DNA of 44,370 nt. Origin: a virus (Duplodnaviria > Heunggongvirae > Uroviricota > Caudoviricetes). A program made the translations under genes and the position numbers. Under the pieces are notes generated by a model. The model did no database searches and was not told where the DNA came from. It worked only from the letters and a program-made list of their open reading frames with translations. The stretch's first letter is position 1. Every line of letters starts with the position of its first letter. The stretch is from the IMG/VR virus record IMGVR_UViG_3300045988_005581, one strand, 5' to 3'. Positions 1,478-44,370 of the stretch are shown one piece after another.

Positions 1478-1570
1478 ATGAGTCTCGAGGTGGTTATTGG
1501 CCTTGTAGCAGCAGGTTATTTTATCGGCGTATTGATTGGGTTTATGTGGGGTAGAGACAGTGTTCAGTGA
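1478..1570 (+). CDS. possible 30-aa hydrophobic peptide
   Basis: ATG 1478 preceded by GGTGAGAG; translates to a single predicted TM-like segment (MSLEVVIGLVAAGYFIGVLIGFMWG...). Very short; speculative. Confidence 0.3.
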   Translation: MSLEVVIGLVAAGYFIGVLIGFMWGRDSVQ

Positions 1571-1730
1571 CATCAACGCAGCAATCGAAGAGGCAATCTG
1601 GCGCCGCTACAACGGAGAGCAGCAGCGGCACTTCTGCCTGGTGCAACGCGGCAACATGGTCGCCGTAGTGCAGGACCGCGATAACAAATATCCGAATGCG
1701 ATGTGGACGACGAGGAATTTCTTAAGATGA
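1536..1730 (+). CDS. hypothetical protein (start uncertain, non-ATG)
   Basis: ORF-track ORF; no ATG near the 5' end, candidate GTG at 1560; stop 1728-1730 overlaps ATG 1727 of the next ORF. Confidence 0.4.
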   Translation: MGLCGVETVFSDINAAIEEAIWRRYNGEQQRHFCLVQRGNMVAVVQDRDNKYPNAMWTTRNFLR

Positions 1731-1963
1731 TTACCAGCATTCCTAACCTTATTAAAGAATTTGGCACGATGGCGGAGACGTGCCGACAAACAGGCCTCAA
1801 CGAAATGACGATTGCGAAGTACAGCAAAGACGTGAAATGCGAGCGCCATGTAATTTATAATAACCGCCTTATGACGCACGTTAAGACAAGCCCGGTGTTA
1901 TTCACGCGCCGTGGTATCACTAAAACAGAGCAACGCATTGCGCGAGAGGAGAGCGGGGAATGA
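1727..1963 (+). CDS. hypothetical protein, possible HTH (78 aa)
   Basis: ATG 1727 in ATGA overlap with upstream stop; tool start 1703 is GTG. Segment TGLNEMTIAKYSKD is weakly HTH-like. Confidence 0.5.
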   Translation: MITSIPNLIKEFGTMAETCRQTGLNEMTIAKYSKDVKCERHVIYNNRLMTHVKTSPVLFTRRGITKTEQRIAREESGE

Positions 1964-2232
1964 TTGAATATGATAACTACCACATAAACCGGTGTGAGGC
2001 ACTTGAATTTTTGTCCAGAAACTTCCACGATTTCCCAGAACACATGCCTAATGTACGCGAAGTTGCGGAGGGTATTTCCGAGAACATATTCAAAGGCTGG
2101 CGATTCGTCGTTATTGATTCTGGTGAGTTGGTTTTCGCTGATTGCCTTTCACCATGTATTCGTAAAATAGACCTTGAGGAATTTAATGCAACTTTTAGTC
2201 TTTCCGAATGCCTGGGTTATAGCGGTAGCTAA
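1960..2232 (+). CDS. hypothetical protein (90 aa)
   Basis: ATG 1960 with GAGGAG RBS and ATGA overlap; followed by an intrinsic terminator. Confidence 0.55.
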   Translation: MIEYDNYHINRCEALEFLSRNFHDFPEHMPNVREVAEGISENIFKGWRFVVIDSGELVFADCLSPCIRKIDLEEFNATFSLSECLGYSGS

Positions 2233-2291
2233 CGACCATTACGGCGGCGACGGTAAACGAGCGCCACGCCACGGCCTATATAACTGATACA

Positions 2292-2314
2292 AGCCCTCTA
2301 CGGAGGGCTTTTCT
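2292..2314 (+). terminator. rho-independent terminator after the small-gene block
   Basis: Stem AGCCCTC (2292-2298) / GAGGGCT (2303-2309), 4-nt loop, then TTTTCT. Confidence 0.6.
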
Positions 2315-2343
2315 GTACATCCCGCCCAATCCCCTTATATAAT
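2314..2343 (+). promoter_or_regulatory. candidate promoter TGTACA-N18-TATAAT upstream of terminase genes
   Basis: Perfect TATAAT at 2338-2343; weak -35 (TGTACA 2314-2319). Followed by a perfect hairpin AGACGCG-TAGGG-CGCGTCT (2350-2368). Confidence 0.35.
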
Positions 2344-2408
2344 CCCTTTAGACGCGTAGGGCGCGTCTGGTGCGCTCTGATGGTCAGACGCATATGCAAG
2401 GGGATTCT

Positions 2409-2918
2409 ATGAAGCTGAAACTTAAGCAGCCATCGCCAGAGGTGGTACAAGCTGCACATGAAGAAGCTGTTAGCGCAAACCGTCGCCGTAAACGACCGCG
2501 CGGTAAACAGAGCCTTTATCAATCATCCCGTAATTCCGCCGCGTTGTGGGACCCGGGCTATTGCGATGCACTAATCGAGTTCTTCGACCGCACGTCGTGG
2601 GAGCTTGTGCCTACGTCTAAGGGTGACGAACGCCCGCTGATTCAGGATAAACCACCGTCACTGGCCCGCTTCGCCTTACACATCGGAGTCACTATCCCGA
2701 TTATTAAGCTTTGGCTGCGTGAGATTCCCGCATTTGCAGAAGCCTGGGAGACAGCACAGGCGCTGGAAGAGGCATACTTCACTGAAACGGGGGCCGCGGG
2801 CATCTCTGCTACGTTTGCTGCCGCGAAACTGGGCCTGAATAAAACAGTTGTCGCCGAAGAAGTACGCGACGAGCCAATCAGCGAAGTAACAATTAAGGTG
2901 GTGTCCGGTGAACGTTAA
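2409..2918 (+). CDS. terminase small subunit (putative)
   Basis: ATG 2409 with AAGGGG RBS (tool start 2370 lies upstream); basic N-terminal region; located immediately upstream of and overlapping the large terminase. Assignment by position and composition. Confidence 0.6.
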   Translation: MKLKLKQPSPEVVQAAHEEAVSANRRRKRPRGKQSLYQSSRNSAALWDPGYCDALIEFFDRTSWELVPTSKGDERPLIQDKPPSLARFALHIGVTIPIIKLWLREIPAFAEAWETAQALEEAYFTETGAAGISATFAAAKLGLNKTVVAEEVRDEPISEVTIKVVSGER

Positions 2919-4179
2919 TATCACGGCAACGGAGCCGCAAGGCGCGTTTCTCGGTATGCATTGCAAGTTTCCGGCATTCGTAGCTGGCTTCGGTACGGGT
3001 AAATCCGAAGTTATGTGCAACTCTGCACTACTCGACAGCATGGAAGGTGGTAGCGATTCTATCATCGCCATGTATGAGCCGACTTATGACCTGGTGCGCC
3101 TCATCCTTGCACCGCGTATGGAAGAAAAGCTCACCGACTGGGGTATCCGGTACAAATACAACAAGTCTGACAACATAATCTATACGTCTTCCGGACAATT
3201 TGGGGATTTTGTTCTGCGTACACTTGATAATCCAGCACGAATCGTTGGCTACGAATCGTTTCGTGCGAAAATCGACGAGTTGGACACCCTTAACATGGAG
3301 CACGCCGAGCACGCGTGGAACAAAGTCATCGCCCGTAACCGCCAGTTGCCGCGGACATATAAACCTATTACACCGAAACCTGCTAATACCGTTTCCGTGT
3401 TCACTACCCCGGAAGGATTCCGTTTCGTACATGACCGCTGGGTAGTCAAAAAGAATCCAGGCTACGAGATGATTCAGGCGTCCACCCTGTCTAACCCGTT
3501 CCTGCCAGAAGATTATGTGCAGTCGTTACGCGACACATACCCAGGTCAGTTGATTGACGCCTACATCAACGGCGAGTTCGTCAACCTGACGGCGGGGACT
3601 GTCTATTACGCCTATGACCGCAGGAAAAACAGCAGCCGCGAAACAATAAAACCAGGCGAGACTCTGTATATCGGGCAGGACTTTAACGTAGGCCACATGG
3701 CTAGTACAGTTTACGTGCAACGTGGCAAAGTCTGGCATGCAGTCGCCGAGTTGGTGGATATGTTCGATACGCCCGATGTGGTGAGAGCCGTAACAGAGCG
3801 CTGGAAAAGTAAGGGCCACTATATCGTTATGTACCCCGACGCAAGCGGTAAAAACCGTAAAAGTAACAACGCCAGCACATCTGATATCGCCCAGTTACAG
3901 CAGGCCGGCTTCGAAGTGCGCGCTAAATCGACAAACCCACCGGTTAAAGACCGCGTAGCGGCGATGAATAAGGCGCTTGAATCTGGTATGGTCATGATTA
4001 ATGAACAGGCTTGCCCTGTTACCGCACGATGCCTGGAGCAACAGGCTTACGACAAGAACGGCGAACCGGATAAATCAGGCGGTGTGGACCACCAGAATGA
4101 TGGAACCACATACCCTATCGCGTATGAAATGCCGATTCGCAAACCAGTTATTAACGTCCCGGTGACTTTCGCACTTTAA
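2908..4179 (+). CDS. terminase large subunit
   Basis: Walker A-like GFGTGKS near the N-terminus, 423 aa, followed by portal gene. Tool start is GTG 2908; alternative ATG at 2956. Confidence 0.85.
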   Translation: MNVNITATEPQGAFLGMHCKFPAFVAGFGTGKSEVMCNSALLDSMEGGSDSIIAMYEPTYDLVRLILAPRMEEKLTDWGIRYKYNKSDNIIYTSSGQFGDFVLRTLDNPARIVGYESFRAKIDELDTLNMEHAEHAWNKVIARNRQLPRTYKPITPKPANTVSVFTTPEGFRFVHDRWVVKKNPGYEMIQASTLSNPFLPEDYVQSLRDTYPGQLIDAYINGEFVNLTAGTVYYAYDRRKNSSRETIKPGETLYIGQDFNVGHMASTVYVQRGKVWHAVAELVDMFDTPDVVRAVTERWKSKGHYIVMYPDASGKNRKSNNASTSDIAQLQQAGFEVRAKSTNPPVKDRVAAMNKALESGMVMINEQACPVTARCLEQQAYDKNGEPDKSGGVDHQNDGTTYPIAYEMPIRKPVINVPVTFAL

Positions 4180-4191
4180 GAGGATTATTCA

Positions 4192-5673
4192 ATGTTAACT
4201 ATGAACGGTCAGAATCAGGGTGTTAAGACAAAACACCGGGAATGGCTGCATCACTTCGATAAATGGCAGAAGGTACGCCACGCTCTTGAAGGCGACCTTA
4301 TCCGCTATCTGCGCAACGTCGGGAAGAACGAGCCTGACCAGACCTACGCAGCACAGCGACAGGAAGAATACGAGAACGGCGCTATCTGCTACAATTTCAC
4401 CAAACGCACGCTGGCGGGGATGACGGGGTCAGTGATGCGCAAAGACCCTGAGCAGATTATCCCGCCTGAACTTGAGTACCTGTTGCACAACGCTGACGGT
4501 TCAGGTGTCGGGCTGTGGCAGCACGCGCAGGATACGCTGATGGAGATTAACTCGATAGGCCGTGGCGGGTTGCTGGTGGACGCCCCGGAAACAGCCGCAG
4601 CAACGGCGGCAGAGCAGAACGCGGGATTATTAAACCCGGTAATCGCATTCTATACCGCGGAGAACATTATCAACTGGAGACTCACCCGCATCGGTTCAGT
4701 GAACCGCGTGACGATGGTTGTATTGCGTGAGGCATGGGAATACTCGGAACCAGGCGCTGAGTTTGAAACAAAATTCGGCGAGCAATACCGCGTCCTTGAC
4801 CTGATTGACGGTCGCTACCGCCAGCGCATCTACCGCTTCGATGCCGAAGGTGGCGCACAGGATGAAGTAATCGAAATCTTCCCGGAACTCGGCGAACAGT
4901 TGCGCGGTAAAATCCCGTTCACGTTCATTGGCGCAAGCAACAACGACGCCACTATAGACGATGCGCCTTTACTGCCGTTAGCTGAGCTAAATATAGGACA
5001 CTTCAGAAATTCGGCCGATGTGGAAGAGGCCAGCTTTATAGTAGGTCAACCGACACTGTTCATTGCCCCCGGCGAGAACATGAGCATGGAGCAGTGGAAA
5101 GAAGCCAACCCACACGGCATACGCATGGGGTCGCGTTCAGGCCACAACATCGGCTCCGGCGGAAATGCGTTTCTGGTTCAGGCGGCGGAAACTAACCTCG
5201 CCAAACAGAACATGCTGGATAAAGAGAATCAGGCCATCCAGATTGGCGCGCAGCTTATCACCCCGACGCAGCAAATCACCGCGGAATCGGCCCGCCTGCA
5301 ACGCGGCGCCGACACGTCAGTCATGGCAACAATAGCACGTAATGTAAGCATGGCGTATACCGATGCGTTGCGCTGGGTTGCGGGTATGCTTGGGCTTAGT
5401 GAAGATACTGAGATTGAGTTCAAGCTGAATATGGAATTCTTCCTGCAACCGATGACCGCTCAGGACCGCGCTCAGTGGATGGCGGATATTAACGCTGGCC
5501 TGCTACCCGCCACCGCTTACTATGCTGCGTTGCGCAAGGCAGGTGTGACTGACTGGACAGATGAGGACATTCAGAACGCTATTGAAGACGCACCTCTGCC
5601 GTTGGGTTCTGTTGCTCAGGTAGCGGGAGAGATTCCGCAGTCGGCGCAGCAACAGGACACCACTCAGCAGTAA
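4192..5673 (+). CDS. portal protein
   Basis: 493 aa directly downstream of TerL, strong RBS AAGAGGA, acidic Gln-rich C-terminus; assignment by size and synteny. Confidence 0.8.
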   Translation: MLTMNGQNQGVKTKHREWLHHFDKWQKVRHALEGDLIRYLRNVGKNEPDQTYAAQRQEEYENGAICYNFTKRTLAGMTGSVMRKDPEQIIPPELEYLLHNADGSGVGLWQHAQDTLMEINSIGRGGLLVDAPETAAATAAEQNAGLLNPVIAFYTAENIINWRLTRIGSVNRVTMVVLREAWEYSEPGAEFETKFGEQYRVLDLIDGRYRQRIYRFDAEGGAQDEVIEIFPELGEQLRGKIPFTFIGASNNDATIDDAPLLPLAELNIGHFRNSADVEEASFIVGQPTLFIAPGENMSMEQWKEANPHGIRMGSRSGHNIGSGGNAFLVQAAETNLAKQNMLDKENQAIQIGAQLITPTQQITAESARLQRGADTSVMATIARNVSMAYTDALRWVAGMLGLSEDTEIEFKLNMEFFLQPMTAQDRAQWMADINAGLLPATAYYAALRKAGVTDWTDEDIQNAIEDAPLPLGSVAQVAGEIPQSAQQQDTTQQ

Positions 5674-5683
5674 GTTCACCTAT

Positions 5684-5704
5684 AGCCCCGAAAGGGGCTT
5701 TCTT
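5684..5704 (+). terminator. terminator-like hairpin between portal and head-morphogenesis genes
   Basis: AGCCCC-GAAA-GGGGCT then TTCTT; probably partial or stabilising. Confidence 0.4.
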
Positions 5705-5709
5705 ATAGT

Positions 5710-6786
5710 ATGCTATTAACTTTAGCGCCACAGGGTTTATCTATGAGCTTACTTACATCCCTAATCAGCCATCAGATATGGCTGCAACGCACCGCATCCG
5801 GTGAAGTGAAAGACCTCACGCCGTTCATTCAGGAGATAAGGGATGAAATCAAACGGCAGGTGCTGTTATTCGGTGACGACGGTCGCAGCACTGCGCGACT
5901 GAATAAACTGTTACGCGACCTGGAAGAAGCACTAACCGGTATTACGGGTGACTGGCAAACAAAGCTAACAGACGACCTTAAGGAACTGGCGGCGTACGAG
6001 GCTGAGTGGAACGTAAAGACACTGACCGCCAACGTAGACGCGGAATTTGTTACGCCTACCGCTGAGCAGGTATGGGCCGCTGCCGAGTTTCAACCATTAT
6101 CATTGAGCGACAAGCCCGTTGATTTCACCAAGCTGATGTCTGGATGGGGCGAAACGGAAGTAGCACGTCTTGTAACTGGAGTTAAGATGGGCTTTGTGCA
6201 AGGTCAAACCACACGGCAGATTGTTAAGAATGTTGTTGGCGCTGGTGGACTAGCCGACATCTCAGAACGTAACGCGACTACGGTAATCCGCACCGCGCTG
6301 TCCCACGTATCCAACGAGGCCCGTAACGAGACGTACCGCCAGAACGACGACATCATCGAGAAATATGAGTGGGTGTCAACTTTGGACAGCCGTACCAGCA
6401 CGATTTGCAGGGCCAGAGACGGAATGACGTGGGAAATCGGTAAAGGTCCGATGCCACCAGCCCATCCTAATTGCCGAAGTACCACTGCACCGGTAATCAG
6501 TTCAGAGTTCGACTTCCTTGATAAAGGCGCAAAACGTGCGGCTAAGGGTGCGTACGGCGGTACTCAGGTAAGCGCAGACACCACCTATTACGAGTTCCTG
6601 AAACAACAACCAGCATGGTTTCAGGACCAGGCGATCGGTCCTGTTCGTGGTAAGATTTTCCGTAACAGCGGTATATCGCCGGAAGAGTTTCGCGTAAAAT
6701 CTGTAGATGGTTTCGGGAATCCGCTTACGCTTAAGCAGATGGCGGAACTCGATAAACGTGTTGCTGATTATCTGAAAGGGGATTAA
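5710..6786 (+). CDS. head morphogenesis protein (Mu F / SPP1 gp7-like)
   Basis: Contains TLDSRTSTICRARDGMTWE, matching the conserved D-x-R-T...C...DG signature of Mu F-like minor head proteins as I recall it; sits after the portal gene. Start could be 5710 or 5740. Confidence 0.8.
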   Translation: MLLTLAPQGLSMSLLTSLISHQIWLQRTASGEVKDLTPFIQEIRDEIKRQVLLFGDDGRSTARLNKLLRDLEEALTGITGDWQTKLTDDLKELAAYEAEWNVKTLTANVDAEFVTPTAEQVWAAAEFQPLSLSDKPVDFTKLMSGWGETEVARLVTGVKMGFVQGQTTRQIVKNVVGAGGLADISERNATTVIRTALSHVSNEARNETYRQNDDIIEKYEWVSTLDSRTSTICRARDGMTWEIGKGPMPPAHPNCRSTTAPVISSEFDFLDKGAKRAAKGAYGGTQVSADTTYYEFLKQQPAWFQDQAIGPVRGKIFRNSGISPEEFRVKSVDGFGNPLTLKQMAELDKRVADYLKGD

Positions 6787-7480: not shown

Positions 7481-7507
7481 TTTTCACCCCCTGCTTAAGT
7501 TAACTGA

Positions 7508-7536
7508 ATAGTACCCTATTATATTGGGGTGTGCAA
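7508..7536 (-). promoter_or_regulatory. sigma70-like promoter TTGCAC-N17-TACTAT (minus strand) with embedded dyad
   Basis: On the minus strand: TTGCAC (7531-7536), 17 bp, TACTAT (7508-7513); dyad AATAG-N4-CTATT at 7507-7520. About 25 bp upstream of the ATG at 7480. Confidence 0.5.
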
Positions 7537-7602
7537 ACTATTTATTTACTTATTCCAGTTATTCCGCTCAATTGTAAATGTTGGAATAAACTATTCGAAT
7601 AG

Positions 7603-7631
7603 TTGACTTTTCACTAAAAATATGATAAGCT
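7603..7631 (+). promoter_or_regulatory. promoter P_A: TTGACT-N17-TGnTAAGCT (extended -10)
   Basis: TTGACT 7603-7608, 17-bp spacer, TG 7623-7624, TAAGCT 7626-7631. Identical core promoter at 39890..39918. Preceded by the perfect palindrome ACTATTCGAATAGT (7590-7603). Confidence 0.6.
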
Positions 7632-7855: not shown

Positions 7856-8242
7856 ATGAATCTTAAAGCAACCGTCGTAGCAGGAGCATGTTTCATCATC
7901 CTGGCTTACACACACGGCATTTATCAGTACCGCAGCGGCTGGCACGAAGGCCGCGCTAATCTCGTTTCGCAGCAACAGCAGAAAGCACAGGCCGAGTTAG
8001 CGAAGAAAACACAACGGCAGCAGCAAGATGAATCAAAGGCCGCCGCCGCTGACAACGAAGGCAAGACGAAATCAGAGGTGATCACCCGTGAAGTCGTTAA
8101 GTACATTAAAACTCCTGGTCGCAGCGTGTGCACTTTCGACCCTGAGCGCGTGCAGCTCAAGTCCCGCGCCGTCGCAAACGCCAATTCCATCCCCGGATAC
8201 GACGATGATGCAGCCGCCGTGCAAGCTGGCACCGCCGAGTAG
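7856..8242 (+). CDS. i-spanin (Rz-like inner-membrane spanin)
   Basis: N-terminal TM segment (VVAGACFIILAY), charged Gln/Ala/Lys-rich coiled-coil-like middle region, and an out-of-frame lipoprotein ORF overlapping its 3' half. Confidence 0.7.
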   Translation: MNLKATVVAGACFIILAYTHGIYQYRSGWHEGRANLVSQQQQKAQAELAKKTQRQQQDESKAAAADNEGKTKSEVITREVVKYIKTPGRSVCTFDPERVQLKSRAVANANSIPGYDDDAAAVQAGTAE

Positions 8243-17019: not shown

Positions 17020-17061
17020 AACATAACTCCTGATTTGAGATAACATCGTTGGTGTAAGTGA

Positions 17062-17090
17062 ATAGTACGCTATTATATCAGGGTGTGCAA
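17062..17090 (-). promoter_or_regulatory. sigma70-like promoter TTGCAC-N17-TACTAT (minus strand) with embedded dyad
   Basis: TTGCAC = 17085-17090, TACTAT = 17062-17067 on the minus strand; dyad AATAG-N4-CTATT 17061-17074; near-identical to the element at 7505-7540. Confidence 0.5.
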
Positions 17091-30093: not shown

Positions 30094-30381
30094 CTAACTA
30101 TAATAGTTTGCTATTAGGTCGTCAACCTGTTTAAACGAACCAACGACAAAAACATTTGCACCGCGTTTACGCATCCGCTCATGCTCACGTAACTGGTGCG
30201 GGTCTGGCTTCGTGTTTTCGTCTTTCTTAACCTCGACAAACCAGATGATACCGCCAGGGAGAATTACCAGCAGGTCGGGAGCGCCGGAACGTCCTTCGTA
30301 GGAGAGCTTGCGAACGAGGCCGCCGAGGGCCTCGAATCGCTCTTTTGCGTATTTCTGTATGCGCCCCTCAGGCGTACTCAT
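30094..30381 (-). CDS. VRR-NUC domain nuclease
   Basis: 95 aa with PDLLVILP...VEVKK, the PD-(D/E)xK-type signature typical of VRR-NUC proteins. Confidence 0.7.
   Translation of the reverse strand: MSTPEGRIQKYAKERFEALGGLVRKLSYEGRSGAPDLLVILPGGIIWFVEVKKDENTKPDPHQLREHERMRKRGANVFVVGSFKQVDDLIANYYS
30097..30125 (-). promoter_or_regulatory. sigma70-like promoter TTGACG-N17-TATAGT (minus strand) with embedded dyad
   Basis: On the minus strand: TTGACG = 30120-30125, TATAGT = 30097-30102; dyad AATAG-N4-CTATT 30102-30115. Confidence 0.5.
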
Positions 30382-33505: not shown

Positions 33506-33534
33506 ACTATAATAGCTAACTATTCAGGTGTCAA
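33506..33534 (-). promoter_or_regulatory. sigma70-like promoter TTGACA-N17-TATAGT (minus strand) with embedded dyad
   Basis: On the minus strand: TTGACA = 33529-33534, TATAGT = 33506-33511; dyad AATAG-N4-CTATT 33511-33524. Confidence 0.55.
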
Positions 33535-36311: not shown

Positions 36312-36340
36312 ACTATAATAGCGAACTATTCACATGTCAA
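36312..36340 (-). promoter_or_regulatory. sigma70-like promoter TTGACA-N17-TATAGT (minus strand) with embedded dyad
   Basis: On the minus strand: TTGACA = 36335-36340, TATAGT = 36312-36317; dyad AATAG-N4-CTATT 36317-36330. A second imperfect dyad AATAT-N4-CTATT lies at 36361-36374. Confidence 0.55.
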
Positions 36341-36404
36341 TGGGCTTTTCTAAAATAATTAATATGGTACTATTCACATATCAACTGACTAAGGAGTAAT
36401 TGAC

Positions 36405-40198: not shown

Positions 40199-40227
40199 TC
40201 GCACACCCCAACATAATAGGATACTAT
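40199..40227 (+). promoter_or_regulatory. sigma70-like promoter TCGCAC-N17-TACTAT with embedded dyad
   Basis: TCGCAC 40199-40204, TACTAT 40222-40227; dyad AATAG-N4-CTATT 40215-40228; same element as 7505-7540 in reverse orientation. Confidence 0.5.
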
Positions 40228-40261
40228 TCACTTATCGGAACGAGACAGAGGAGTGATGGTT

Positions 40262-41333: not shown

Positions 41334-41362
41334 TTGCACACTGGGATAGAATAGACTACTAT
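41334..41362 (+). promoter_or_regulatory. sigma70-like promoter TTGCAC-N17-TACTAT with embedded dyad
   Basis: TTGCAC 41334-41339, TACTAT 41357-41362; perfect dyad GAATAG-N4-CTATTC at 41349-41364. Confidence 0.55.
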
Positions 41363-41392
41363 TCATTTACACAGACGGGAGGAGAGACAGAG

Positions 41393-44230: not shown

Positions 44231-44260
44231 CCCGGCCCTGACCCAGCCGGGATTTTTTTT
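44231..44260 (+). terminator. strong intrinsic terminator after the lysis cassette
   Basis: CCCGGC (44231-44236) / GCCGGG (44246-44251), 9-nt loop, then eight consecutive T (44253-44260). Confidence 0.75.
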
Positions 44261-44370
44261 ATCTATTTTCTGTGATGACTAGTTGACTATTATCCTCGAC
44301 CCTATTATATTTACTTCATCGACAACGAGAACGGAGTAGAGAGAAATGGGCAACGTATCGACGATAGAAA
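44252..44370. repeat. Terminal duplication (copy 2), identical to 1..119
   Basis: Exact repeat of the window start, including the promoter at 32..60 and the first 25 nt of the first ORF. Confidence 0.9.

Follow-up and report, generated by a model that had tools for sequence, protein, structure and literature searches.

In Escherichia coli, the 5′ untranslated region (UTR) of ompA, reportedly described by Emory, Bouvet and Belasco in 1992, is said to carry a 5′-terminal stem-loop that stabilizes the mRNA. The put RNAs of phage HK022 are two adjacent stem-loops in nascent RNA, and they stand at the head of a long, terminator-containing operon. In some phages that use a packaging-recognition (pac) site, such as SPP1, the region carrying it overlaps both the promoter and the start of terS, the gene encoding the small terminase subunit. 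In phage T4, genes e, soc, 49, and I-TevI are arranged such that promoter-initiated RNA lacks the 5′ strand of an inhibitory helix (PMC3014915). Here, we focus on the stretch directly upstream of terS in the IMG/VR virus record IMGVR_UViG_3300045988_005581, a 44,370-nucleotide (nt) sequence of the Caudoviricetes that we call the window. Our best overall explanation, to which we assign a probability of roughly 0.6, is that this stretch is the 5′ control region of a DNA-packaging operon, terS–terL–portal.

A sequence-only reading had proposed that the stretch is either a pac region or a regulatory 5′ UTR. The second proposal is supported: the terminator and promoter are conserved, and the leader hairpins covary across lineages. 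The elements of the control region are these:

2291..2314, + strand: predicted intrinsic terminator of the upstream small-gene unit, with stem AAGCCCUC/GAGGGCUU, a UACG tetraloop, and the U-tract UUUUCU
2314..2319, + strand: −35-like hexamer TGTACA, 4/6 matches, 18 nt 5′ of the −10
2328..2336, + strand: upstream anti-Shine–Dalgarno (anti-SD) copy AATCCCCTT, a perfect 9-nt complement of 2398–2406
2338..2343, + strand: −10 hexamer TATAAT, a consensus match, of the predicted σ70 promoter of the terS–terL–portal operon
2338..2349, + strand: 5′ strand of helix P1, TATAATCCCTTT, comprising the −10 and the linker and complementary to the SD-to-AUG stretch
2350..2350, + strand: predicted transcription start, an A, the seventh base after the −10 and the first paired base of P2
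2349..2369, + strand: hairpin P2, 8–9 base pairs (bp) with an AGG triloop; −12.0 kcal/mol, z = −4.0
2370..2393, + strand: hairpin P3, five outer bp, bulged C2375, five inner bp, and a UGG triloop, with the apex GAUGGUC
2398..2410, + strand: 3′ strand of P1, consisting of the terS SD AAGGGGA (2398–2404), the spacer, and the first two bases of the AUG

Both hairpins had been noticed in the sequence-only reading. Specifically, AGACGCG-TAGGG-CGCGTCT lies at 2350–2368 as claimed and, as RNA, is larger, with nine pairs closing the AGG triloop over 2349–2369. Likewise, TCTGA-TGG-TCAGA at 2376–2388 proves to be the tip of a longer, 10-pair hairpin with one bulge, and AGACGC indeed recurs at 2350 and 2386. 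P3 folds with −10.3 kcal/mol (z = −2.5), and the whole 2280–2425 stretch with z = −3.9. The genome has a single tandem pair of hairpins with WGG triloops, versus 0.025 expected per strand. The pair begins where the predicted transcription start falls, and the terS ribosome-binding site begins 5 nt 3′ of P3. A scan of 1500–3500 against Rfam 15, with E up to 10, matched no family; its sole match was a chance alignment to nos_TCE (18.8 bits versus a gathering score of 60). Two other uses of the repeated word were rejected. As a recognition word, the 7-mer AGACGCG is not enriched (14 found versus 8.7 expected in the genome), and an alternative pairing of 2363–2369 with 2385–2391, which the AGACGC repeat allows, is lost, by eye, outside Kagunavirus and Jerseyvirus.

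Among 50 IMG/VR relatives, the region is near-invariant within the genus Kagunavirus, to which the window belongs, and in Jerseyvirus the terminator, the two hairpins, and the SD pairing all show compensatory changes. The common layout before terS, namely a −10, 5–9 nt, an (A/U)GG-loop hairpin, a UGG-loop hairpin, an SD, and an ATG, is also present in phiEap-2, St162, vB_STM-ZS, Klebsiella VLCpiS11a, and IMG/VR contig L184, as well as in Edwardsiella phage eiAU (Eiauvirus) and in Dhillonvirus (Pandora71 and L204–L218). Against phiEap-2, blastn matches only window positions 2336–2414, at 78.6% identity, while TerS identity is 29%. With nine Kagunavirus and Jerseyvirus sequences as its sole input, a covariance model placed its top match at the expected position in every other lineage's locus. 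Scores were 52–60 bits for phiEap-2, St162, and ZS and 15–20 bits for eiAU, L184, VLCpiS11a, and Pandora71, with noise at or below 11.6 bits; the window itself holds exactly one match, of 72.9 bits. The motif is absent in more distant TerS relatives, specifically Klebsiella phiKp_7-1, VLCpiS8a, and IMG/VR loci L185–L196. Scanning viral contigs with the 14-mer GGCTTTTCTGTACA gave mostly chance matches and helped little.

Computation establishes the structures as well as their conservation and covariation. In an Infernal alignment of P2 and P3, 97.6% of cells pair and 12 of 18 pairs are changed on both sides (five of eight in P2, with 96.9% of cells paired, and seven of ten in P3, with 98.1%). 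None of 500 shuffles reached any of five pairing measures, and slid partners pair at 19–52%. Such an alignment is fitted to the model and favors structure; a hand alignment gives the same picture, and RNAalifold, given an unsupervised MAFFT alignment, finds P2 again along with the inner part of P3. The non-Watson–Crick cells comprise 27 G-U versus 2 A-C and therefore point to + strand RNA (or single-stranded DNA), not to a palindromic duplex DNA site or an antisense RNA. An antisense − strand promoter (TAGAAT, 2408–2403) is an unlikely source of the hairpins because, on that strand, the G-U pairs become A-C mismatches. Although the stems are largely rewritten from lineage to lineage, the loops C(A/U)GGG and GAUGGUC change little or not at all. 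Taken from these alignments, P2 and P3 are almost certainly a functional + strand RNA structure.

The perfect TATAAT claimed at 2338–2343 is present, and TGTACA-18 nt-TATAAT amounts to 10/12 matches. The −10 is TATAAT or TACAAT in all ten lineages, making it the best-conserved hexamer of the region, and it lies 5–9 nt from P2 in each. TGTACA is invariant in Kagunavirus and Jerseyvirus although the 18-nt spacer diverges. Most lineages have a TTGnnn hexamer 16–18 nt 5′ of the −10, with different spacers; by eye, relatives show TTGCCT-17, TTGCGC-16, or TTGGTG-17 at the −35 position. In Dhillonviruses the −10 is extended to TGnTATAAT; L218, a divergent member with a wholly different P2 stem, also has it. 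Given this pattern, a σ70 promoter directly after the terminator U-tract probably drives the packaging mRNA, a prediction in which we place considerable confidence. Its start is put at A2350 because that is where standard σ70 promoter geometry places it. Every linker between the −10 and P2 begins with C, and most lineages have a C-rich one (CCCTTT, CCCCCTT, CCCATTAAC); within each genus, no other stretch varies as much. C-rich discriminators are typical of promoters with short-lived open complexes that respond to growth rate or guanosine tetraphosphate (ppGpp), such as rrnB P1. By analogy, a discriminator of this ppGpp or growth-rate type could be an alternative reason for the C-rich linker.

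Upstream of the promoter, the terminator is where it had been claimed to be, as AGCCCTC-TACG-GAGGGCT at 2292–2309 followed by TTTCT to 2314. A flanking A-T pair lengthens its stem to 8 bp (2291–2310), and it folds with −14.8 kcal/mol (z = −4.3). Our terminator scan skipped this site, as it counted the T run only after the longest possible stem. The terminator ends a co-directional unit, after the last small open reading frame (ORF). In Jerseyvirus, the terminator loops vary, a T-A pair has become G-C by compensatory change, and a single G-U variant occurs; an equivalent GCCCGC/GCGGGC terminator occupies the same place in phiEap-2, St162, ZS, and VLCpiS11a, and Dhillonvirus also has an equivalent. 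Among the lineages beyond Kagunavirus and Jerseyvirus that share the layout, a terminator stands directly before the −10 in most, with eiAU lacking it. On these sequence features, we consider 2291–2314 very probably an intrinsic (Rho-independent) terminator. It corresponds to T23, already predicted in Kagunavirus fBC-Eco01 (PMC9825357, Supplementary Table S2), where the identical hairpin AAGCCCTCTACGGAGGGCTTTTCTGTACAT lies just 5′ of terS. Unlike the present analysis, that study predicted neither a promoter nor a leader structure here. The terminator is also a mosaic joint, because in many relatives homology begins only at about 2277–2291. Separately, five relatives (L016, L031, L034, L039, and L047) have roughly 170–330 nt extra between 2288 and 2289, exactly 5′ of the terminator; the insert is probably a small accessory gene and marks a recombination joint.

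Our notion of how these parts work together is as follows. The terminator at 2291–2314 would stop transcription from the upstream small-gene unit, and the σ70 promoter, with its weak TGTACA, 18-nt spacer, and TATAAT, would start the packaging mRNA at about A2350. That mRNA would open with P2 (AGG loop) and P3 (UGG loop), leaving the terS ribosome-binding site free. Its base-paired 5′ end may shield it from 5′-end-dependent decay, and the invariant loops may be read by some factor. RNA that reads through from upstream, by contrast with the promoter-initiated RNA, would carry 2338–2349 together with the 2328–2336 copy; these would pair with 2398–2410 and close a three-way junction that hides the terS start. 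If so, only promoter-initiated RNA would be translated well, following the logic of T4 e, soc, 49, and I-TevI. In this scheme we infer the transcription start, the stabilization of the mRNA, the translational gating, and any protein partner.

The helix on which gating would depend, P1, can be followed through the predicted folds. Two copies of AATCCC(C/T)TT, at 2328 and 2341, each show complementarity to AAGGGGATT, the terS ribosome-binding region at 2398–2406. The 5′ strand of P1 occurs only in RNA reading through from upstream, because the strand contains the −10 itself. For RNA beginning at the −10, the minimum-energy fold is a three-way junction of P1, P2, and P3 in 10 of 12 sequences, and for RNA beginning at P2, the SD is left free in the predicted fold. 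When 2316–2420 is folded, the minimum-energy structure pairs the 2328–2336 anti-SD copy, a high complementarity that is Kagunavirus-specific. Predicted accessibility of the SD-to-AUG stretch is 0.15–0.55 in read-through RNA versus 0.55–0.71 in promoter-initiated RNA, and it is lower in read-through RNA in 8 of 10 lineages. Duplex energy of P1 beats shuffles (p ≤ 0.02) in seven of ten lineages, cognate strands pair better than non-cognate ones (permutation p = 0.0026), and in a manual alignment 70% of P1 cells are paired versus 58.5 ± 2% after permutation. The partners differ by lineage: AATCCCTTT/AAGGGGATT, AATCCTT/GAGGATT, AATCTCCT/AGGAGATT, GAACCT/AGGTTC, and TATAATCCC/GGGGGTTATA.

Several points weigh against the account given above. 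On the promoter side, the −35 in the window is weak (4/6, with an 18-nt spacer), our promoter scan overall yields no more sites than shuffled sequence, and transcription-start data for Guernseyvirinae or Dhillonvirus were not found in the literature. Time-course RNA sequencing of Kagunavirus K1B4, at coarse resolution, assigns the genes on either side to the same “middle” class and does not set the two sides apart (PMC12645636). A consensus −10 promoter could also fire early, which would weaken any early/late gating logic. Stabilization alone does not fully explain the leader, because a plain stabilizer needs neither two hairpins nor invariant loops. Regarding P1, its registers were picked by hand for each lineage, which inflates the pairing counts, and it is weak or absent in eiAU, St162, Pandora71, and L218. 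About one-quarter of Kagunavirus genomes have uncompensated linker changes (CCATTT, CTATTT) that shift the P1 duplex energy from −10.3 to between −5 and −3 kcal/mol, and the linker is the region's most variable piece within Dhillonvirus. Because of these hand-picked registers, weak or absent helices, and uncompensated, variable linkers, we hold gating of terS translation by P1, as modeled, to be a tentative proposal with a little less than even odds.

The same P1 observations favor a simpler rival, in which the complementarity is a functionless by-product of composition and the leader consists of a promoter and 5′ hairpins only. C-rich linkers and G-rich SDs are complementary from composition alone: the C-rich discriminator faces the G-rich SD, and TATAAT faces the AT-rich spacer. 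Uncompensated linker changes are frequent within both Kagunavirus and Dhillonvirus. This rival nonetheless has to meet the better pairing of cognate strands, the seven lineages that beat shuffles, the lineage-specific partners, and the second, perfect 9-nt anti-SD copy of Kagunavirus, and we judge it somewhat unlikely. Rather unlikely in our estimation, and partly overlapping our best explanation, is the view that P2–P3 serves less for 5′-end protection than as a platform for a trans-acting factor. The partner could be a protein of phage or host, TerS repressing its own translation, the 30S subunit, or RNA polymerase (in put-type processive antitermination). The loops stay near-invariant despite rewritten stems and a TerS at 29% identity, there are two hairpins though one suffices for protection, and the motif exists in a single genome copy at the head of a long + strand operon with internal terminators at 5684, 7812, 10203, and 14596. 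Set against this, the analysis identified no candidate partner and no Rfam family match, and by our own reading the loops do not fit the CsrA GGA motif. Among motifs considered in P2 and P3, CsrA-type GGA loops are not present, and a boxA-like CGCUCU in P3 is restricted to Kagunavirus and not conserved (again our own reading). In the modeled fold, one triloop of P2–P3 exposes C(A/U)GGG, which resembles an SD, and the neighboring triloop exposes an AUG within GAUGGUC. Such a display could serve ribosomes, as a split or mimicked binding site, as a standby site, or as the point where a mini-ORF begins; alternatively, a dedicated protein could dock there. We speculate, while thinking it improbable, that P2–P3, which is conserved across phage genera, is an undescribed RNA motif that sets the amount of small terminase beyond what end protection does.

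The remaining rivals take the hairpin region as DNA or as coding sequence. The pac alternative, the other proposal of the sequence-only reading, holds that the region is duplex DNA bound by TerS at which packaging series start. It draws on the position of the site directly 5′ of terS, on the headful mechanism by which these phages package (PMC10783031, PMC9022532, PMC13348001), and on the invariant loops; moreover, by our reading, the most conserved TerS stretch (PPSLARFALHIGV..W) may be a helix-turn-helix, such that a conserved DNA target is conceivable. That proposal fares poorly. The stem bases change freely while pairing is kept, the covariation is strand-specific and of RNA type, as the G-U excess given above shows, and the hairpins persist while TerS falls to 29% identity. 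In ten lineages, moreover, the motif coincides exactly with the +1 predicted for a conserved promoter, and a published PhageTerm analysis of Kagunavirus fBC-Eco01 found no termini. We searched the literature on these phages for a pac or packaging-start coordinate and found none. Overall, a pac site here is highly improbable. Record ends at 2369/2370, 2393, and 2398 (Bas70, UTI-CM001, MET_P1_001_43, and the Kenya-K series) were considered as physical termini and rejected: they reflect annotation convention, because the first base of each record falls on the annotated terS start codon or some 10 nt 5′ of it. In Dhillonvirus, many records have TATAAT as their very first bases, a choice probably copied from the first deposited genomes. 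A coding role, with TerS beginning at GTG 2370 or ATG 2394 as in several database records, is scarcely credible. The frame is open from 2370, and the annotation of the closest relative starts terS at the counterpart of 2394. In Kagunavirus and Jerseyvirus, however, substitutions alter amino acids while keeping pairs (for example, TCT/CAG to TAT/CAT), and upstream in-frame stops, read by eye, exist in VLCpiS11a and in L184. The sequence indicates that the true terS start is ATG 2409, which has the SD in front of it and opens the conserved N-terminus MKLKLKQP/MKIGKAKEP. Database records thus hold three terS starts, 2370, 2394, and 2409, with GTG 2370 and ATG 2394 both inside P3. Similarly, the annotated start in Dhillonvirus Pandora71 (L201:283) lies inside P3, and the likely true one is L201:304. 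The AUG at 2380 in the P3 loop opens a mini-ORF, 2380–2412 (MVRRICKGIL), whose TGA overlaps the terS ATG as ATGA. In other lineages, the AUG-GUC/GUA mini-ORF stops 5–15 codons on, near the terS SD or AUG, or is in frame with terS (VLCpiS11a).

The window is a complete, circularly closed phage genome with an assembly overlap: its first 119 bp (1–119) are repeated at its end (44252–44370), which gives a unit length of 44,251 bp. Its genus, Kagunavirus, belongs to the Guernseyvirinae, and over 1900–3000 it is 99.9% identical to Escherichia phage vB_EcoS-22664BS2. The neighboring features are these:

32–60: strong σ70 promoter-like site, TTGACT-17-TATATT, preceding the small ORFs
95–2232: ten small ORFs forming the upstream unit, one with a weak NinH match, the last at 1960–2232
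2409..2918, + strand: terS (small terminase subunit), from ATG 2409 to the TAA stop at 2916–2918
2908–4179, + strand: terL, matching Pfam Terminase_6N/6C
4192–5673, + strand: portal gene, 3′ of terL, with head genes beyond

From this arrangement, it is plausible that the upstream small genes are driven by the 32–60 promoter and that their unit is closed by the terminator at 2291–2314. The label “early/late boundary” that the region had been given is plausible because a σ70 promoter at 32–60 would drive the small genes and the terminator would end that unit. A second terminator of like style, AGCCCCGAAAGGGGCTTTCTT, lies at 5684–5704, between the portal gene and a head-morphogenesis gene that starts at 5710; the latter would need read-through because the gap after the terminator is too small for a promoter.

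A further observation concerns promoters elsewhere in the genome. The partly palindromic motif TGAATAGT-N3-CTATTAT has 12 matches in the genome versus 0.66 expected, located as follows:

25–42 (= 44276–44293), 7505–7522, and 17059–17076, + strand: TGAATAGT-N3-CTATTAT
7596–7613, 30100–30117, 33509–33526, 36315–36332, 36359–36376, 40213–40230, and 41348–41365, − strand: the same motif

The motif overlaps the −10 region of strong − strand promoters (TTGACA-17-TATAGT) and also occurs at + strand sites without a good −35, before the operons starting at 7856 and 17198. Its consensus was published for Kagunavirus fBC-Eco01 as a “phage RNA polymerase promoter” (PMC9825357). We find it more likely that it is a regulator binding site inside σ70 promoters. 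The terS promoter lacks the motif, which marks most other promoters in the genome.

Control of terminase expression is poorly understood beyond a few model phages. Here, one compact leader precedes terS in Guernseyvirinae (the Kagunavirus, Jerseyvirus, phiEap-2, St162, and VLCpiS11a lineages), Dhillonvirus, and Eiauvirus. These are coliphages and Salmonella phages that are common and find use in therapy and biocontrol. Conservation is higher in the leader than in TerS, and the leader presents a specific, testable cis-element for the dosage or timing of packaging genes. Its analysis also corrects the terS start codon for many database records, and it gives anyone engineering these small phages a compact part that combines promoter and leader. 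A factor bound by the invariant loops, if there is one, would add a new regulator to phage assembly.

Comparison with the described systems places the locus as follows. Like an SPP1-type pac region, it lies at the 5′ end of terS in a headful-packaging siphovirus; unlike such a region, its conservation fits a folded RNA, not protein-bound duplex DNA. The HK022 put RNAs and P2–P3 are alike in general layout, and antitermination by P2–P3 would be conjecture. As in an ompA-type stabilizer, P2 starts no more than about 2 nt from the predicted 5′ end, which would leave that end base-paired. In contrast to ompA, there are two hairpins with invariant triloops kept across phage genera, features that exceed the needs of 5′-end protection. 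The closest likeness is to the arrangement of T4 gene e. In both, the segment that can pair with the SD and AUG of the gene downstream includes the promoter −10, RNA initiated upstream can fold the inhibitory helix while promoter-initiated RNA (with its start as predicted here) would lack the 5′ strand, and the gene is one whose premature expression could plausibly harm. The differences are that the promoter here resembles a host σ70 promoter and not a gp55-dependent T4 late promoter (TATAAATA), that a terminator precedes it, that the helix closes a three-way junction with two conserved hairpins, and that the helix is only moderately conserved. Because the promoter is σ70-like, we regard the locus as an analogue of the T4 genes in mechanism and not as a member of their family. 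The terminator–promoter junction is itself ordinary; the new part is the uncatalogued, conserved two-hairpin leader, with its possible T4-like gate over the ribosome-binding site.

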